This document shows, piece by piece, positions 1,920-44,066 of a stretch of DNA of 64,000 nt. The translations under genes were made by a program, and so were the position numbers. The notes below the pieces were generated by a model, which made no database searches, was not told where the DNA came from, and saw nothing but the letters and a program-made list of their open reading frames with translations. This stretch comes from Bdellovibrionota bacterium. GTDB taxonomy: Bacteria > Bdellovibrionota_C > UBA2361 > CAKMMH01. The stretch covers positions 192,001 to 256,000 of the forward strand of contig JBMNLI010000017.1 of assembly GCA_050952645.1 (NCBI GenBank). The letters are read 5' to 3'. Position 1 is the first letter of the stretch. Each line of letters opens with the position of its first letter.

Positions 1920-3383
1920 ATGAATGTAGCTAGACAAGACGAATTTACCAACTCTAAAAAAAGTAAGTTTACGGAGTCTAGTAAACAACAAGTTAGCTCT
2001 AATCTAGTTAGAGTTCCGCCCCATTCCTATGAAGCAGAAGAGTCGGTGCTAGGTGGCATCTTAGTCGACAATTTTACTATTAACGCTGCGATGGAAATTT
2101 TAAAACCATCAGATTTTTATAAAAGAGCGCACTTCAAAATTTTTGAAGCTATGATTTCTCTTACTGAGAGAAGCGAACCGATTGATGCTATTACATTAAG
2201 CGAAGAGCTTAAAAGGTATAATGTGCTAGAGGAATGTGGCGGATTAGAAATGATCTCTAGGTTAGCTTCATCAGTTCCTAGCGCTGCAAACGTTGCTTAT
2301 TATTCAGATGTAGTAAAAAACTTTTCTATTAGAAGAGCTGCTATTCATGAAGCTAGTGAGGTTATAAATAATGCGTTTGATACTGAAAAAAATTTAGATG
2401 AATTTATAGATGAAACTGAACAAAGAATTTTATCTATTGCAGATGAAAAAACTGATAAGGCTTTTACGCATATTGGTGATATAGCGCAAGACGCTTTACA
2501 ACTAGTAGAAAGGTTGTATGATAAGAAAAAATCCGTTACTGGCGTTCCGTCTGGATTTAACAAACTTGATGATTTAACGGCAGGCTTTCAAAAATCTAGT
2601 TTATTTATTTTAGCTGCTCGTCCTGGCGTTGGTAAGACTGCTTTTGCTTTAACTATCGCACAAAATGTAGCATTAAGAGAAGAATTAGCGGTGGGAATTT
2701 TTTCTTTAGAGATGTCGAAAGAAGAGCTTTTTATGAGAATGTTAAGTTCAGAGGCGAGAGTTTCAAATTCAAAATTAAAAACTGGTAAATTTCCCGAATC
2801 GGATTTTCCAAAAATAGTCAATGCCGCAAGCAGATTAACCGACGCCCCTATTTATATAGATGATACGGGGGGTTTAACTATTACGGAGCTAAAAGCTAAA
2901 GCGAGAAGATTAGCTAGAGAAAAAAAACTAGGATTGATCATAGTAGATTATTTACAACTTATGAGAAGCCCGACTTACAAATATAGTAGAGAGCAAGAGA
3001 TAGCGGATATTTCACGTTCATTAAAGGGGCTTGCTAAGGAGCTTGATATACCAGTTATAGCGATTTCACAATTAAATCGTAGCGTAGAGGGAAGAGATGA
3101 AAAGCGCCCAAGGATTGCAGACTTAAGAGAGTCGGGAGCTATTGAACAAGATGCCGACATTATAGCGTTTGTATATAGAGATGAGATGTATAACCCCGAC
3201 ACTCCAGATAAGGGCATTGCAGAAATTATTTTAGGCAAACATCGCTCAGGTCCAACTGGCACTGCAAGGGTTGCTTTTTCGGGAGAGTATACTAGGTTTG
3301 ACCCTCTAGATGAGTCTGGAATAACGGAACAATTCGAGGCTCAAGATTACGAGCAAGATGATTTTGATATAGATTCTTTTTAA
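1920..3383 (+). CDS. dnaB: Replicative DNA helicase
   Basis: PPHSYEAEESVLG, AARPGVGKT, IIVDYLQLM, DLRESGAIEQDAD. Confidence 0.98.
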   Translation: MNVARQDEFTNSKKSKFTESSKQQVSSNLVRVPPHSYEAEESVLGGILVDNFTINAAMEILKPSDFYKRAHFKIFEAMISLTERSEPIDAITLSEELKRYNVLEECGGLEMISRLASSVPSAANVAYYSDVVKNFSIRRAAIHEASEVINNAFDTEKNLDEFIDETEQRILSIADEKTDKAFTHIGDIAQDALQLVERLYDKKKSVTGVPSGFNKLDDLTAGFQKSSLFILAARPGVGKTAFALTIAQNVALREELAVGIFSLEMSKEELFMRMLSSEARVSNSKLKTGKFPESDFPKIVNAASRLTDAPIYIDDTGGLTITELKAKARRLAREKKLGLIIVDYLQLMRSPTYKYSREQEIADISRSLKGLAKELDIPVIAISQLNRSVEGRDEKRPRIADLRESGAIEQDADIIAFVYRDEMYNPDTPDKGIAEIILGKHRSGPTGTARVAFSGEYTRFDPLDESGITEQFEAQDYEQDDFDIDSF

Positions 3384-3392
3384 TTAAAATCT

Positions 3393-3589
3393 GATTCTTT
3401 ATGTTTTAAGTTAGTTTAAAAGAAAATTGACTTTAGTAAAGAACTAGCTATAGTTTAAAGAAAAATTACAACTATATTTAAAGTAATTTATTTTATGTAA
3501 ATTTCTTTAAAGTCAACTTTCTTTTTGGGCCCCGTGGAGAGCGATACTAATTCTTAAGGTCTAAAACCCACCTTAAAACGTGAAGAACT
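3393..3589. mobile_element. MITE-like repeat, subfamily A
   Basis: Right end CCCACCTTAAAACGTGAAGAACT, degenerate left end, internal inverted repeat AAAAGAAAATTGACTTT/AAAGTCAACTTTCTTTT; matches the copies at 38686, 41760 and 53047. Confidence 0.8.
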
Positions 3590-3675
3590 AAATTTTTTCT
3601 TAAATTATTCCCCCTTCCAAACTCTAACATATTGAAATAACGAAACTATTTTTAAGAAAAATTTTGAGAAAAGGT

Positions 3676-3703
3676 TTGACTAATTATTTTAAAATGATAT
3701 ACT
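3676..3703 (+). promoter_or_regulatory. Sigma70 promoter of structured RNA unit 1
   Basis: TTGACT(3676-3681)-16 bp-TATACT(3698-3703), with TG at 3695-3696 (extended -10). Confidence 0.8.
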
Positions 3704-3710
3704 TTTTCTT

Positions 3711-4395
3711 TGTGGTTGAAAGCTTCATGTCAGCTAGCCATAGGGGGTGGGGGGAGAGCGAAGATAGGCAAAGTATTTACTTGAAGAGTGAACGTTGATG
3801 CCTAAGCGTAATCGCTAGCTAAAGTAAGCTCTTAGCTTGCTTTGGCTTATTTTCTGCTCTCTCCCCTAGTTTTAAAATAAATATAACAGCAACAGTAAAA
3901 CGTAGCTTAGGCTTAAAGCTTTAAGTTATTTATGTCATGGGTAGCTAGTAGCAGGTAGCTTGTGGTTTTTGCTCATCGGAGCCACAGACAGCTACTTTCT
4001 CTCGCGGCTACGGCTATTAAGTGTGTTTTACTGTTCTTTCACTCGCTTGACACAAAAGTGTCCAAGGGCGGAGGCGTTTGATGACGACTCCAAACGCCAA
4101 CCTTTGTGAGGGCGAGTGAAGAGGGAGGGGGAATGCATTCTGCGCAAAAGAAACACTACCATGGCATTTCTTCGCGTACCCCCTCCCTCGGCTTACTTTT
4201 ATAAGGTTTTTCCTTAAGGGTTTTTATCTTAAAGAAGGTTTTCTCTTAAGGGTTAAGTCTTAAGGTTTAAAATCGCATATAATGCGAAAATTGAAGATTT
4301 CGGAGCAATGATTTTGAAACAGCTAAGTTTAAAATAACGAAGTTTAAAATAGCGAAGTTCAAAGATGACGCTTCGAAATTCTTCTCCCATATTTT
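3711..4395 (+). ncRNA. Putative large structured ncRNA, unit 1 (unknown family)
   Basis: Stems 3711-3718/3735-3742, 3749-3759/3856-3866, 3891-3901/4025-4035, 4038-4048/4110-4120, 4121-4131/4179-4189; 3' hairpin about 4293-4384 then T-rich tail; no ORF. Confidence 0.65.
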
Positions 4396-4711
4396 TATAT
4401 TTTTACTTTTTCTACTTTTTTCATCTTTATACGTATTAGTACACATCCATATATCTTAATATATCTTTTATAATTTAACCTTTATAATTTACGCCTTACT
4501 CTTAGTAATTATCCTTTTTTAAAAAATATACTTCTAAAAATTCTAACATTAGCTTTAATCCTTAAAAATTATCTAAATCTTAAACTTTTCCTTGTTTTAC
4601 GTATAAAATTTAATTTTAACTTTATAACCTACTAAAAATAATTTAAGAAAAGCTTAAGACATAAAAGATAAAAAAATTTACAAATAATTTAAAAAAATTT
4701 TTCATAAACTA

Positions 4712-4739
4712 TTGACTTGATATCAAAAAGTGTTATATT
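4712..4739 (+). promoter_or_regulatory. Sigma70 promoter of structured RNA unit 2
   Basis: TTGACT(4712-4717)-16 bp-TATATT(4734-4739), TG at 4731-4732. Confidence 0.8.
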
Positions 4740-4745
4740 ACTTTT

Positions 4746-5511
4746 TCATTTAGTGACAACATCAGCAATATTTAATTGCTATAAGTATATAACGAAATAC
4801 GTAGCGACAAGTTGCTTTACAGAGTTCCTACTTGTTAGCTACGAGTTCCCATCACGAAAGAGGGCTAGGTCGTGCTAGTGCCACAATTGCGCGATCTTCT
4901 CCTTTGCTCTTTTTTAGAGCACTCTCTCTAGTGTGGGAAGCAAAGGTTTCGCCGAAGTGAAAGCTTGTTTCAGGCTCTTAAGTAGCGCCTGACTCTAAGA
5001 GTCTTACAAGTTTCACTTATCTTAGCATTTGCAAAGATTAGGGGGCTAGAGTTGGATAAAAAGCGAGAAATCGCACCTTCCTCCGCAGGCTCTAGCCCCC
5101 TACGGCGAAATCTTTAAATTAGATATAATAAAGGCTTAAACCCTTATAAGTCCCCCCTTAAAAGTTCGAAGAGATTCTATAGTAATCCGCCTAGGGGAGT
5201 CTATTCACTTTAAGGGTGGCAAACATAAAATCCTTGCTCTATGTTTTTGCTCTATATATCATTGCTTAGGTAAGCATTTTTTTTAGACGCACTTTTAGGA
5301 GCAAGGCAAAGGGGGGCGCAAGGAGGTTTCATCCTTTTTCCTCTGCGCGGCGCCCCCCCTCTTGGTTTATTTTTATAGCGTTTATTTTTATAGCGTTTTT
5401 TAAAAGGTTCTTCTCGTCTTAATGTTTAAAAACAATTAAGCGATGAGCAACTAAAAAAAGAGGACAACTTGTAAAGGGTTTCGGTAATTTACGAAGCCCT
5501 TTTCCTATTTT
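4746..5511 (+). ncRNA. Putative large structured ncRNA, unit 2 (unknown family)
   Basis: Hairpins 4800-4843 and 4846-4939; four-way junction closed by 4942-4954/5103-5115; stems 5232-5239/5299-5306 and 5311-5319/5350-5358; terminator-like hairpin about 5473-5511. Confidence 0.7.
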
Positions 5512-5682
5512 TAATTAAATTTTTAATTAAACTCGTTTCTTTAATCTTTTTTATTTTTCACATTTTAACCTAAACATTTTAACCTAAACTTTTCTCTTTT
5601 TACATATAAAATTTTTATTTTAATCGACAAACTCACTTAAAAAAATTAAAAAAATTACCTTGCACCCTTACTTACAAAAACA

Positions 5683-5710
5683 TTGACTACATACTCAAAA
5701 ATGTTATATT
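5683..5710 (+). promoter_or_regulatory. Sigma70 promoter of structured RNA unit 3
   Basis: TTGACT(5683-5688)-16 bp-TATATT(5705-5710), TG at 5702-5703. Confidence 0.8.
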
Positions 5711-5716
5711 CAATAT

Positions 5717-6046
5717 TATCGTTTATAGATGCCTTCCTTGCCAACTTGCAATTTAGGTATCTAGAAAAGTGCTTACATTTCACTCCCAATATGCAAACAA
5801 AAGTGAAAGAACATTACAATTAACCTTTTGGATCATTTCTAAAGCTCGTAATGACAAGTTTTTTTAATTAACCCTAAAAAAACTGCATGCACTTTTCAAT
5901 TACCCTTTAATTTTAACTAATTACTAAAGAGAGAAATTAGAAAAAGAAAAGGAAGGCTTTCCCATCTCTAAAAAGTTTTAACCTTGCACTCTTTCTTTTT
6001 TCTCTCTTAGGAGGTAAAAATAACAAAAGGCTTTTTGCTTTTTTTA
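5717..6046 (+). ncRNA. Putative structured ncRNA, unit 3 (AU-rich, unknown family)
   Basis: Stem 5726-5734/5755-5763; 5764-5772/5889-5897 enclosing three hairpins; 5927-5936/5999-6008; T-tract about 6038-6045. Confidence 0.55.
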
Positions 6047-6102
6047 TAAATAATATTTTAAAAAGTTTTTTGCAAAAAAAATAAAAATATTTTGCAAAAA
6101 AC

Positions 6103-6132
6103 TTGACTTGCTTTAAAAAAAGAGGTTAATAT
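6103..6132 (+). promoter_or_regulatory. Sigma70 promoter of structured RNA unit 4
   Basis: TTGACT(6103-6108); -10 less clear (TAATAT 6127-6132, 18-bp spacer); structure starts at 6139. Confidence 0.6.
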
Positions 6133-6138
6133 TGACCT

Positions 6139-7170
6139 TTGTTAGTTACTGAGACGTAGCTCACCCTACAATTTCTCATAGCTAACAATTTGCTCAATAC
6201 TTTAGCTAAGGAATTCCTTAAAGCTAGTGTCGAGCATGCTTTCGCCTTATAACAGAGAAATTTAGATATGCTTCTCGTTGAAACGTGTCTTCCTACAAAA
6301 TGCTACGTGCAGTAGGCATAGCAAATCTCTATAACATTTCCCTAGAGTTTGCTGTGGTTTCTTTGTTATGTTCAGGGAAGCGAGGAAGGTCGTCGAAAGT
6401 AGTTTAGCATTGGCTACTTTCTTAACCTTTACTTGCTTACCCTGAGGGCGAAAGTTAATTCTTGTTATTTTTAGTTTTGCAAACAACATTTTTTTTTAGC
6501 GTTCGCAATTAAAAATTGCAGTTAAAAAATCGCAGGTTAAAAAGTGTTATAAGGTATATTTATATTGGTGGTTTTAGCAAAGCACTATTTTAGAAAATAG
6601 CGATTATAAGGAAATAAAGAGATGCACTCTCCTTGGCTCCTACGCCCCTTTAGTTGATAAGGCTAACAAGCTGCAAGCCTTTCATTGGGGTAAAGCCTTT
6701 CACAAAATCAAAGGGGCGTAGGTGCTCTATTTGAGTTTACTCTTTTTCTTTTCTCGTTATTTACTATTATTATTGACGCCTGGCATCGATACATAAATAA
6801 TTATCTTGTCTATTATTTTAAGCGTCTTGCGTATTATTATTCGCATTTGCTAAAATACCACCTCTCGAGGCGGAGTGGAGGAACTTTTCTTTTCTAGCAT
6901 CTCTTATTTTCTACCCCTTGATGCTTAGAACCTCTTTGTGCGGGCAACGTGAATGTTTCGCACGGGCATTGCGCGTTGTGTTTCCCCACCACTCCACTCC
7001 GCCTCACTCTTTAACGCTTCTGTAAAAAAGGAAGCTATAAAGGTTCTTTAGAATGTTTTTATAGATGGTTTTTAAAAAATTATATATAATTTTTTCTATA
7101 AAAAGATTTTAAAGGTGGCAATAAAAAAGATTTAAAGGCTCGCCTTTAAAATCTTTTTCCCATTTTAATT
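6139..7170 (+). ncRNA. Putative large structured ncRNA, unit 4 (possibly two RNAs: 6139-6455 and 6567-7005)
   Basis: Hairpins 6139-6188 and 6191-6236; junction closed by 6238-6247/6446-6455; stems 6567-6581/6846-6862, 6639-6651/6710-6722 (13 bp perfect), 6867-6880/6992-7005 (14 bp perfect); terminator-like hairpin about 7123-7166. Confidence 0.7.
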
Positions 7171-7451
7171 CCTTACTTAATTATTATTTACTTAATTTTT
7201 TCTAATTTAATTTTCTCTAATTAAATTTTTTATTACATCTGTTAATTTTATTTTTTCAATTTCCCCCCTTTCTTTGCTTTCTTTTGCCTTGCTTTTATTT
7301 GCTTTTCCTTTTTTTTCCCTTAACTTTTTATATTTACTTTTTGATCCGTTTAAAACATTTCATTTTTTTATATTTCTTATGGTTGTTTTCTTTTACTTCA
7401 TTTTTTATAATAAAGTTTCAAACTTAAATTCTAAAATTTTAAAGGCTATTT

Positions 7452-8636
7452 ATGATAAGAGAAATTACTGAAAATATATATTCACTACGTGCTATAGATT
7501 GGAATGTAAGAGAATTCCATGGATACGAAACTAAAAGCGGTTCTACCTACAACTCATACTTTATAAAAGATAAGAAAAATGTGCTAATAGACTCTGTAAA
7601 ACATACATTTAAAGATACATTGTTAAATAATATATCTAGCGCGTTAGAAACTAGCAAGCTAGATTATATCGTTTGCAACCACGCAGAGCCAGACCACTCA
7701 AGTGCAATTAAGGATGTTATAAAAAAATATCCAAACGCTACTCTTATATGCAACCAAAGATGTAAAGATATTCTCTCTTTGTATTACAACACTACTGATT
7801 GGAAATTCCTAATTGTAAAAGATGGCGATACCATAAACTTAGGAGAAAATGAACTATATTTTTACGATACCCCAATGGTTCACTGGCCAGAATCTATGAT
7901 TACATACGTCCCTAATAAAAAACTCCTATTTTCCATGGATATTCTAGGACAACATTACGCCTCATCATTTATATTTGATTATGAAGAAAAAAAAGAAACT
8001 CTACTTTCTGAAGCAACGAAATATTATGCAAATATAGTTTTGCCCTACCCTAAACAAGTTTTAAATGCATTAGGAAAAATAAAAAAATTAGATGTCGAAA
8101 TAATCGCTAATAGCCACGGACTTATAATTAAAAAATATTTGCCTGAGATGCTCTCCTTATACGAAAATTTTGCTAATGGTATAAATAAAGAAAAAGCATT
8201 AGTAATTTACGATACAATGTGGGGAAGCACTGAAAATATAGCCTTTAGTTTAATAAGCGGCCTAAAAACTAATAAAGATTTAGAGATTAAAGTTTGCGAC
8301 CTAAAAACTACTCATAATACTATCGTTGCTAGCGAGGCAATAGATGCAAAATATATCTTAGTAGGCTCCCCTACCCTTAACTCAAATATCCTGCCTACGG
8401 TTGCTAGCACTCTTACTTACCTAGAGGGACTAAAACCATTAAATAAAACTTGCCTCTGCTTTGGCTCATATGGCTGGGCACCTGCATTTGCTAAGAAGAT
8501 AACCGAATATTTTGAAGCATTAAACTGGAATATATTTTCAGACCCTATAAGCGTTAAATACAAACCTACTAACGCTTTTTTAAATGATTGCTTTAATATT
8601 GGAAAAACTCTTAGCACTTATAATCAGCATCAATAA
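7452..8636 (+). CDS. fprA: Flavodiiron protein (FprA-type; metallo-beta-lactamase plus flavodoxin domains)
   Basis: GSTYNSY, NHAEPDHS, PMVHWPESM, YDTMWGST, FGSYGW. Confidence 0.92.
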   Translation: MIREITENIYSLRAIDWNVREFHGYETKSGSTYNSYFIKDKKNVLIDSVKHTFKDTLLNNISSALETSKLDYIVCNHAEPDHSSAIKDVIKKYPNATLICNQRCKDILSLYYNTTDWKFLIVKDGDTINLGENELYFYDTPMVHWPESMITYVPNKKLLFSMDILGQHYASSFIFDYEEKKETLLSEATKYYANIVLPYPKQVLNALGKIKKLDVEIIANSHGLIIKKYLPEMLSLYENFANGINKEKALVIYDTMWGSTENIAFSLISGLKTNKDLEIKVCDLKTTHNTIVASEAIDAKYILVGSPTLNSNILPTVASTLTYLEGLKPLNKTCLCFGSYGWAPAFAKKITEYFEALNWNIFSDPISVKYKPTNAFLNDCFNIGKTLSTYNQHQ

Positions 8637-42169: not shown

Positions 42170-44066
42170 ATAGGGTAGAGCGAGGGCTATACCCTCTCCC
42201 TCCCGTCGCACCGTACGTACGGGTCTCGTATACGGCGCTCCATTAATATAATATCAAGTAATACTCAGGTAATACGTCAAAGGGTCGATTAAACCAATTC
42301 GTTCCTTTGTTTTACGCCCCAATATTTTAGGGCTTAATGCATAATTCACTACGTACCACGAACTGCGTCTATACCAGCCGAGTCTGCTGTTAGCAACCTT
42401 ATAGATTTCTTCATTTCTAAAATTGCAACCAAGCATTCGGTTCAATTTCTTAAGATTTAGATAGATTCGTCTCGGCAATTTCCACTGTTTAAGTATTATA
42501 ACCCTCACTTTGTGTCTAAGCCATTGACCATATTTATCTATAAAAGTCTTAAGAGTTCCTATCTTATAATAGTTTATCCAACCTTTAATTAACCAGCTTA
42601 GCTGTTGAAATGTCGAACCTAACGTTCGTGCCATTGCCTTCCGTCTACAAAGAATTTCTCTAGTTTTATCATAGAGTTTTCGTTTGCGATCTTCAGCAGG
42701 TTTACATTTCCAAGTTTTATACCCACTCTTCCAGTAGGTAAAGCCTAAGAAAGTGCTTTCCGTCGGCCTAGAGATTTTACTCTTACTTGAATTAATTTTA
42801 AGTCGTAGCTTACGCTCCAACCAACTCGCAACGGACTTCATTACTCTATTAGCAGCCTTTTCACTTCTAACAAATATATTACAGTCATCGGCATATCTAA
42901 CAAACTTAAGTCCTCTTGCTTCCAGTTCCTTGTCGAGTCTTATCAAGGTATATGTTAGATAATACTGGGGATAATGGACCTCCTTGCGGAACTCCTTTCT
43001 CACTTACAGTAAACAATCCATCTTCCATTATACCAGCTCTTAAGAACTGTCTTATCAATCGTAGTGTCTTCGCATCTTTGATGCGTTCCCTGATTATCGA
43101 AATTAATTTGTCGTGATTAACAGTATCAAAATATTTCTCTATGTCTAGGTCTATAACCCAATCATAGCCTCTTTTCAAGTACTCAAGAGTTCTATATACT
43201 GCTAGATGGCAATTCCTTCTAGGTCTAAAGCCATAGCTACTATTACTAAAATACTTTTCGTATCCGCGTGCTAGTATTTGCGCTACCGCTTGTTGAATTA
43301 CCCTATCTACTACTGTAGGTATTCCTAAAGGTCTCATCTTACCATTAGCTTTAGGTATATACACTCTCTTAACTGGACTCGGCTTATAATTCCCTTCACG
43401 TATCTGAGATTTTATCTCTTCTCTGTGAACGGCAAAATAGTCTTCAAGCTCATCTACTGGCATATCATCTACACCAGATGCACCTTTATTTCGCTTAAAC
43501 AGCCTTTATAGCCTCATCTATATTTTTGTCTGATATAATTAGTTCAATCAATTCCACCTGTTGCTCCTCCCTCTGTTTGTAAAGCTACTAGAAAACACCC
43601 CCTCTATCTTCTGCCCCCACAGGTTACGTTCCTGTTTGTTAGGCATATCCTTCAATTTCGGACTCTTCTAGCCTTGCTTACAGTGATTCACAATATATTA
43701 ACGTTCAACCCTTCCTTGAGTGGTGTCTCAAGTACTATGGTATCAACTGACTTCCAGATATAAGCTTTATATCGCACGTGCATAGCACGCTATCTGGACC
43801 TCCCGGGGTAAGGCATAGTTCTTTCACCAGACAACCTCCAGATTTACTCGTTTGGTTTTACGTTTGTCTTTAGGGCTTCGGTTTGTAGCGCAACCTCACC
43901 CACCATTTAGCCTTGTATCTGGTTTCTGTTCGTAGGCTCCTTGGTTTTGATCCGCCACTTCCTTCACTCTAACATTACTGCTTCGAGCTTGTGGCATCAC
44001 TACACTTGGTGACAACTACCCGTGACGGGACTTTCACCCGCTAGAACTATGTCGTGCCCGGCACAC
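42170..44066 (-). mobile_element. Group II intron, class C (IIC), 1897 nt
   Basis: 5' GTGTG; domain V GAGCGCCGTATACGAGACCCGTACGTACGGTG with CGC triad; 3' end CTACCCTAT; boundaries fixed by the intact neighbouring repeat (GGGC|TTCGTG). Confidence 0.95.
42254..43557 (-). CDS. ltrA: Intron-encoded reverse transcriptase/maturase, no endonuclease domain; two apparent +1 frameshifts (about 43498 and 42937)
   Basis: GGAGG RBS and GTG at 43557; NKGASGVD, RPLGIP, SYGFRP, PQGGPLSP, RYADD, FLGF, GWINYY. Confidence 0.92.

Follow-up and report, generated by a model that had tools for sequence, protein, structure and literature searches.

What does a genome of 1.95 Mb and 31% GC keep in 4068 bp without a long open reading frame? 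In this Bdellovibrionota genome (G000) such a gap lies at 3384-7451, with dnaB on its left and an FprA-like gene on its right; positions are those of the window, the whole stretch of 64,000 nucleotides that was analysed. Outside its repeats the gap is single copy and consists of five units; in every one of them a promoter-like site stands ahead of DNA that is richer in GC and folds strongly. The first of these, unit 1, has a GC content of 46%. Contigs of five of eight sequencing runs compared (X2, X3, X5, X7 and X8) cover long parts of it, with 0-9 differences, and it is therefore real DNA and no assembly artefact. The evidence presented here makes unit 1 a strong candidate for an undescribed RNA gene, in an array of five units with unrelated folds; it is not a discovery.

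The units are listed below together with the domains of unit 1. They are unrelated by sequence, no pair in the gap aligning above a z of 2, and the weak likeness among them is confined to the promoter regions of units 1-4. The four-way junction of unit 2 (4954-5103) leaves 0 nt unpaired, and unit 4 holds a nested three-/four-way junction domain (6238-6456) and a long hairpin (6608-6752). At 6722-6796 on the plus strand, a stretch termed unit 4b, a hydrophobic 24-codon GTG frame lies behind a paired G-rich site; the frame has no family match, and T-rich DNA readily yields such frames.

Table. Features of the dnaB-fprA gap, its flanks and the predicted domains of unit 1 (positions in the window).
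Feature	Position	Strand	Evidence
dnaB, replicative helicase, left flank of the gap	1920..3383	+	TIGR00665 above cut-off
Dispersed ~200-bp repeat copy, MITE-like, outside unit 1	3404..3610		>40 other copies in the genome
P1, sigma-70-type promoter TTGACT-16-TATACT, extended -10 TG	3676..3703	+	predicted start ~3710
Weak 5' hairpin, strain-variable	3711..3742	+	z -1.3; 3 changes in run X5, each of which breaks a pair
D1, four-way junction: closing stem and three hairpins, 2 unpaired junction nt	3749..3866	+	z -7.4
Third hairpin of D1 and U-rich run, possible internal intrinsic terminator	3817..3853	+	-18.1 kcal/mol
D2, three-way junction with perfect 11-bp closing helix	3891..4035	+	z -3.6
D3, long stem enclosing the hairpin GGCGTTTG/CAAACGCC	4038..4120	+	z -4.3
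GGAGG and ATG at 4081, 12-codon frame	4070..4119	+	site partly hidden, AUG in loop
D4, 11-bp GC-rich stem and bulged hairpin	4121..4189	+	z -6.0
Second GGAGG (fully paired) and ATG at 4133 (unpaired), 23-codon frame	4124..4204	+	non-hydrophobic
Tail of degenerate tandem repeats	4196..4395		14-, 15- and 32-nt repeats; z -3.6 (+), -4.2 (-)
Second dispersed repeat, fragment	4577..4660		further fragment 5577-5657
Unit 2, strict promoter 4712-4739 and folded region	4712..5360	+	z -9.5 for 4745-5170
Unit 3, strict promoter 5683-5710 and folded region	5683..6030	+	z -5.2
Unit 4, weaker promoter 6103-6132 and folded region	6103..6752	+	z -8.2, -5.0
Unit 5, promoter-like site 6773-6801 and folded region	6773..7005	+	z -6.2
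FprA/flavorubredoxin-like gene, right flank of the gap	7452..8636	+	NCBIfam match below cut-off; synteny

An earlier sequence-only reading had described unit 1 as five structured domains in 3711-4395 and had proposed a folding prediction as a check. The predicted fold exceeds chance by far: 3711-4195 folds at -193.3 kcal/mol compared with -145.8 ± 6.3 for 100 shuffles, none of which was as stable (z -7.5). The minus strand folds well too (-160.5, z -6.6). The z scores of the single domains also rest on 100 shuffles each. The helices named for D2, D3 and D4 are all perfect reverse complements in the sequence, namely the closing helix AACAGTAAAAC/GTTTTACTGTT of D2 (3891-3901/4025-4035), GACAC/GTGTC (4049-4053/4058-4062) and GGCGTTTG/CAAACGCC (4073-4080/4091-4098) of D3, and the 11-bp stem of D4 (4121-4131/4179-4189). 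GACAC/GTGTC, however, pairs in the minimum-energy fold only and is absent from the centroid and MEA folds. Other parts of the description had to be revised. The stretch 3749-3866, taken for a long irregular rod, is instead the four-way junction of D1. The 5' hairpin at its predicted place is weak, and in one strain three changes disrupt its predicted pairing. The structured unit holds for 3711-4195, but the remainder to 4395 is largely tandem repeats, and this tail probably lies outside the selected fold. In the model, D4 is the likely 3' domain of the putative RNA. The internal hairpin of D1 with its U-run could yield a shorter form of ~140 nt, although the count of intrinsic terminators across the region equals chance (4 vs 4.0).

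The short linkers between the last three domains had been read as a sign of coaxial stacking in a folded RNA rather than of chance palindromes. They are indeed as short as claimed, 2 nt (4036-4037) and 0 nt. Shuffling unit 1 40 times, however, gave 20 linkers between large folded domains, 12 of which likewise measured at most 2 nt, so that short predicted linkers are no sign of coaxial stacking. Tight multibranch junctions are the rarer feature, with 5 of 137 in shuffles of unit 1. The case for a folded RNA is thus argued not by the linkers but by the folding energy, the rank of the fold in the genome, the promoter, the GC content and the G-U pairs, which make up 21 of the 146 confident pairs.

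For the rank we folded 364 stretches of 480 nt, of which 359 were placed blind in single-copy intergenic DNA and 5 by hand, with three shuffles each and a pooled deviation. The hand-placed stretch over unit 1 ranked first of all 364 (z -7.9). Among the six top blind ones, five fall inside the dnaB-fprA gap; those over unit 1 scored -5.9 and -5.8, compared with -5.0 for RNase P, -1.9 for tmRNA and a median of -0.9. The gap is the most structured single-copy intergenic DNA of the genome. When the scan used 150-nt stretches, which cut the domains, a z of -3 was passed by 9 of 44 in the gap and by 119 of 2311 elsewhere; one of these nine lies in unit 1. Tight four-way junctions with a probability of 0.5 or more were predicted at 10 loci in 1501 scanned stretches. 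RNase P is one of these loci, and three are in the gap, in unit 2 (0.97), unit 4 (0.96) and unit 1 (0.58). A second promoter-led structured cluster lies outside the window, on the minus strand at G000:C17:339200-341450 (z -6.0); it contains 6 GGAGG motifs where 0.7 are expected, and two open frames of 2 and 4 codons.

As to transcription, the start of unit 1 had been placed at a predicted start site, and P1, judged by its sequence, predicts nearly the same position, ~3710; the transcript itself remains putative. The strict promoter pattern, which was drawn up after these sites had been seen, has 7 matches in the genome, 3 of which head units 1-3, and its reversed control has 2. Looser patterns placed 4 of 47 and 5 of 143 matches in the gap, one of these inside a repeat, and a loose promoter scan of the region stays at chance level (19 vs 16.7). 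In G001, the sister genome of the same genus, the strict pattern precedes what we take to be the 16S gene of an rRNA operon and an S15-like gene. No canonical terminator follows D4. Since Rho is present in the genome and the DNA beyond the tail of unit 1 is C-rich and G-poor, we infer a 3' end made by Rho. On the minus strand, a promoter-like site at 4732-4759, opposite to the overlapping promoter P2 and with a -10 element lacking its last T, would point towards the 3' end of unit 1.

The two ribosome-binding motifs near the 3' end suggest a different reading, in which unit 1 is the mRNA of very short frames, comparable to type I toxin-antitoxin mRNAs, and the fold serves to hide two strong ribosome sites. 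In this scheme, a ribosome reaching the end of the 12-codon frame, the stop codon of which immediately precedes D4, would unfold D4 and so initiate on the 23-codon frame. The predicted structure agrees with this, as both AUGs are unpaired, the ribosome sites are partly or fully paired, and the second site is partly open in nascent chains. Each of the two GGAGG motifs of unit 1 is followed by an ATG at a distance of 4-9 nt, where 0.035 such cases are expected (P 0.0007, 1500 shuffles), and a near-identical ribosome-site context occurs in the structured cluster outside the window. The pattern was, however, noticed first and tested afterwards. As 17 of 114 GGAGG in single-copy gaps carry such an ATG, two of two amounts to a chance of about 2%. 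The signal is absent from units 2-5 and from the unit found in G001, and only 32 of 1256 long ORFs have GGAGG before their first ATG. The peptides of the 12- and 23-codon frames are not hydrophobic, with a maximum 15-residue hydropathy of 0.35, the 23-aa peptide matches nothing in Pfam or PHROGs, and no good antisense promoter was found near unit 1, the minus-strand promoter-like sites being weak and >500 nt downstream. The passages cited for type I toxin-antitoxin mRNAs (PMC8594479) describe a strong fold, a sequestered Shine-Dalgarno sequence and a short frame, all of which unit 1 shares; its 23-codon frame has such a sequestered site and falls within the range of 20-60 aa. According to the same passages (PMC8594479) those mRNAs measure 150-400 nt. 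Unit 1 differs from them in being longer, in its non-hydrophobic peptide without a family match and in having no antisense gene that we could find. On balance we consider the mRNA reading unlikely.

The gap was compared with the corresponding junction of three relatives. In G002 dnaB and fprA are ~130 bp apart and the junction is empty. In G003 it holds a long inverted repeat of a high-copy REP-like family (L023:3025-3759 and the end of L148), with 48 matches in G003, 34 in G002 and none in G000 or G001. In G001 it holds two genes and one promoter-led folded unit of ~370 nt (z -7.6). Folded from its predicted start, the G001 unit forms a four-way junction with 0 nt unpaired. This junction was missed in a scan with fixed boundaries, where upstream DNA altered the fold; the four-way-junction feature is therefore context-dependent. 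None of units 1-5 aligns with the G001 unit.

No homologue of unit 1 was found in any collection searched. With 3600-4400 as query, blastn found none in the 60 other genomes, the only match in all 61 being one of 27 nt in the promoter region. Units 2-5 and the G001 unit gave short weak matches alone in 91 genomes. Single-sequence covariance models of D1 and D3-D4 found only themselves and weak hairpins in 99 kb, and no homologue in four family genomes (the three relatives and G000 itself). Phage and plasmid records contained no homologue of unit 1, exact-pattern searches of viral and genome contigs gave a single chance match, within a coding region, and the metagenome scans gave no close relative, the best match having 49% identity. 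As a control, G000 and G001 share 83-85% identity in RNase P and 80% in tmRNA, in a comparison that covered 2.07 of the ~2.3 Mb of G001 (91% complete). Because these RNAs were easily matched and unit 1 was not, unit 1 must be young, fast-evolving or imported. The lack of a homologue is also why there is no covariation for unit 1.

Two other loci came to light in these comparisons. One is a stretch 74% identical between G000 and G001 (G000:C10:201800-202160 and L264:16170-16520, both minus strand), with shared hairpins, a C-rich single-stranded block and no Rfam match; as an unknown RNA conserved within the genus it is the better candidate. The other is a second variable site behind a rarA-like gene (L276:16776-18131, L134:1501-1815 and G000:C17:73476-77088). 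In G001 this site carries abutting long hairpins round an orphan frame of 60 aa, rich in Arg and Lys, whose ribosome site is hidden. G002 has a fold of ~285 nt there, led by a promoter and closed by a stem, and G000 has other short orphan frames.

A further idea is that unit 1, or one of its domains, represents a 6S RNA in highly diverged form, which would bind sigma-70 RNA polymerase. In 91 genomes from the order the Rfam model of 6S RNA (RF00013) finds nothing, the loci of RNase P, SRP and tmRNA are elsewhere in this genome, and the promoter of unit 1 is strong; the RNase P RNA of this genome, ~100 nt longer than those of relatives, is a further point on this side. On the other hand, no domain is a rod with a central bubble, RF00013 has no match in the gap at an E of 10, the gap holds five unrelated units, and a housekeeping RNA, which one would expect to detect in the sister genome, was not detected there. 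We regard a 6S RNA as very improbable. The long RNase P RNA (G000:C7:130421-130922, L019) has 502 nt compared with 391-401 in three family relatives, and carries AT-rich helical insertions.

A junction so variable could also be a hotspot where debris accumulates, unit 1 then being, transcribed or silent, a product of decayed repeats, local duplications and foreign GC-richer DNA without a selected function. The differences among G001, G002 and G003 fit this, as do the MITE pieces beside units 1-3 and the slippage repeats in the tail of unit 1. Unit 1 is, however, single copy and unlike any repeat of the genome, it folds better than RNase P with many G-U pairs, tight junctions and no simple inverted repeats, and near-consensus promoters and 46% GC have been kept in a genome of 31% GC.

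Strain variation speaks on both sides. The differences were taken from low-depth contigs, and four changes were left out of the pair tests. Over whole units, 12 of 29 changes break predicted pairs, with 11.9 expected, so that no protection is seen and the result is neutral, as debris would predict; 3 of these 12 are in the 5' hairpin. When the test was limited to the core domains, which were chosen afterwards, only 1 of 36 changes breaks a pair of probability 0.9 or more, compared with 5.8 expected (P 0.01), and this sparing of high-confidence pairs argues against debris. At a threshold of 0.5 the core numbers were 5 and 7.4 (P 0.18). The density of changes in the core is not lowered (15 vs 16.2), the sole change in D2 turns an A-U into a G-U pair, and no compensatory pairs were found among the strain changes. 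The core pattern hints, if weakly, that selection acts on the helices more than on the letters. Debris we think rather unlikely.

Tests for known families gave little. Rfam 15 has only two matches in the 64-kb window, both to a group II intron far from unit 1 (RF02001 and RF00029; 42170-43984, minus strand), whose ORF region is apparently split into two frames. At E values up to 10, the region 3300-7500 gave 7 sub-threshold matches and nothing at the gathering threshold, and no riboswitch model matches in the gap. An apparent likeness between D1 and the c-di-GMP-I riboswitch was dropped, and so was one between the minus strand and HEARO, as Rfam gave no match to either at an E of 10. A sponge of the CsrB/RsmY type was rejected: CsrA is present in 4 of 4 genomes, yet 4 of the 5 GGA motifs in unit 1 are fully paired. 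So was an Hfq-dependent base-pairing sRNA, with Hfq in 0 of 4 genomes and no excess of matches to mRNA starts for 4 of the 5 loops; the remaining loop beats all 12 shuffles. The best loop-loop duplex (-6.6) does not exceed its null of -8.5 (P 0.83) in a crude single-sequence test. Among the matches listed for 108 CRISPR spacers, none that would indicate self-targeting goes beyond chance length. In the literature searched, mostly outside subscription journals, we came across no account of unit 1 or of other non-coding RNAs from this lineage.

Several of these tests address the possibility that unit 1 is a non-autonomous mobile element or a single-stranded DNA structure (REPIN-like, GEBRO-like or an intron without ORF), with hairpins that serve mobility or replication. 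Such an element would account for islands of folded, GC-enriched DNA set between AT-rich tracts beside dnaB; a REP-like element does occupy the same junction in G003, the genome carries group II introns, and GEBRO (RF02988) has a partial match. This match is weak, however, with 16.8 bits (E 0.12) where the threshold is 284.7; a GEBRO search was empty in all 5 genomes, and unit 1 is chromosomal whereas GEBRO is defined as lying between plasmid replication origins. A MITE or REPIN was rejected because unit 1 is single copy and no Y1 transposase was found in G000, nor was one in G001. An ORF-less group II intron (domain V/VI) fails as well, the intron models matching only the intron at 42170-43984 and nothing in the gap. 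Descent of unit 4 shared with the G003 repeat was dropped, their likeness ranking only 15th and 119th of 4348 segments. Finally, the promoter stands exactly at the start of the fold. A mobile element is in our judgement quite improbable. Elsewhere in the genome, a 1.6-kb array (G000:C11:44451-46059) holds, by eye, about two dozen copies of a 16-bp palindrome, which we take to resemble parS, and at G000:C17:346179-351882 the sequence resembles, again by eye, parA, parB and rep genes with frameshifts, which reflect either the decay of a replicon of plasmid type or errors of assembly.

The reading we prefer, with somewhat less than even confidence, takes unit 1 as a gene in its own right, for an RNA of ~490 nt that would be abundant, stable and specific to the species and would act through its shape, as a protein decoy or scaffold. 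A shape-based RNA is favoured because the readings as a pairing RNA, a CsrA sponge and a mobile element fail their tests, because structure seems to have been kept over sequence, and because tight junctions recur in unrelated units. The unit would have arrived at an insertion hotspot with rapid turnover. Transcription would start at ~3710, and the 3' end would lie near D4 at ~4200, made by Rho and trimmed or left by weak termination. The RNA would be abundant and stable, its helices would be under selection more than its letters, and shape, rather than base pairing or coding, would be its mode of action. In this model the tight branched junctions may bind some nucleic-acid-binding protein. That five tandem units are kept in a genome of 1.95 Mb hints at function. 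A bolder version, which we offer as a long shot, makes the dnaB-fprA junction an island of non-coding DNA, with an array of unrelated RNAs that turns over fast. These RNAs would be highly expressed, would converge on tight four-way junctions, would serve as shape decoys for branch-recognising proteins of host or phage, and would be swapped between species like defence genes.

Almost all known large bacterial RNAs came to light through conservation. If the preferred reading of unit 1 as a shape-based RNA is true, it would reveal a class of RNA invisible to covariation screens: unit 1 is absent even from the sister genome, yet it has a predicted ~490-nt fold better than that of RNase P and a promoter of the type that precedes the G001 rRNA operon. 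It would provide a test case for the origin and turnover of complex RNAs.

By analogy, the nearest precedent for unit 1 is merRNA of Bdellovibrio. The parts of the source cited here (PMC3627812) describe attack-phase sRNAs of Bdellovibrio bacteriovorus that are intergenic, structured, 98-655 nt long and without a homologue outside the species; merRNA, at 445 nt, is extremely abundant, is a proposed sponge and holds a c-di-GMP riboswitch. Like these RNAs (PMC3627812), unit 1 would be a stand-alone, intergenic, structured and species-specific RNA, and it comes from the same phylum. The attack-phase sRNAs are dispersed and shown by RNA-seq, as far as that account goes (PMC3627812), whereas unit 1 is predicted and is one of five tandem units; merRNA has a c-di-GMP riboswitch (PMC3627812), and unit 1 has no riboswitch match.

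With ROOL, GOLLD and OLE, as presented in the sections cited (PMC5737381, PMC12286853), unit 1 shares its size, several multistem junctions and the lack of a long ORF: its ~490 nt are predicted to hold a four-way junction and one or more three-way junctions. The function of these RNAs is mostly unknown according to those sections (PMC5737381, PMC12286853), which report their conservation between species or phyla together with covariation, pseudoknots and kissing loops, and place ROOL and GOLLD often near tRNAs or in prophages. For unit 1, in contrast, no homologue was found, its predicted loop-loop pairing does not rise above chance, and the window holds no tRNA.

Sibling sRNAs such as PrrF1/2, OmrA/B and AbcR1/2 resemble the gap in being promoter-led non-coding units side by side; in the cited passages (PMC4211561) they are short and defined by high sequence identity. 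The gap units differ, with no mutual alignment, lengths of 200-600 nt and no Hfq in the genome. Comparable in setting are the species-specific sRNAs of rearranged intergenic regions, which in the portion of the work cited (PMC4350180) are likewise lineage-specific, have a sigma-70 promoter and lie in a region that differs between relatives. In our own judgement, however, unit 1 has far more length and structure than one would expect of a newborn sRNA, and in this gap the pattern repeats five times.
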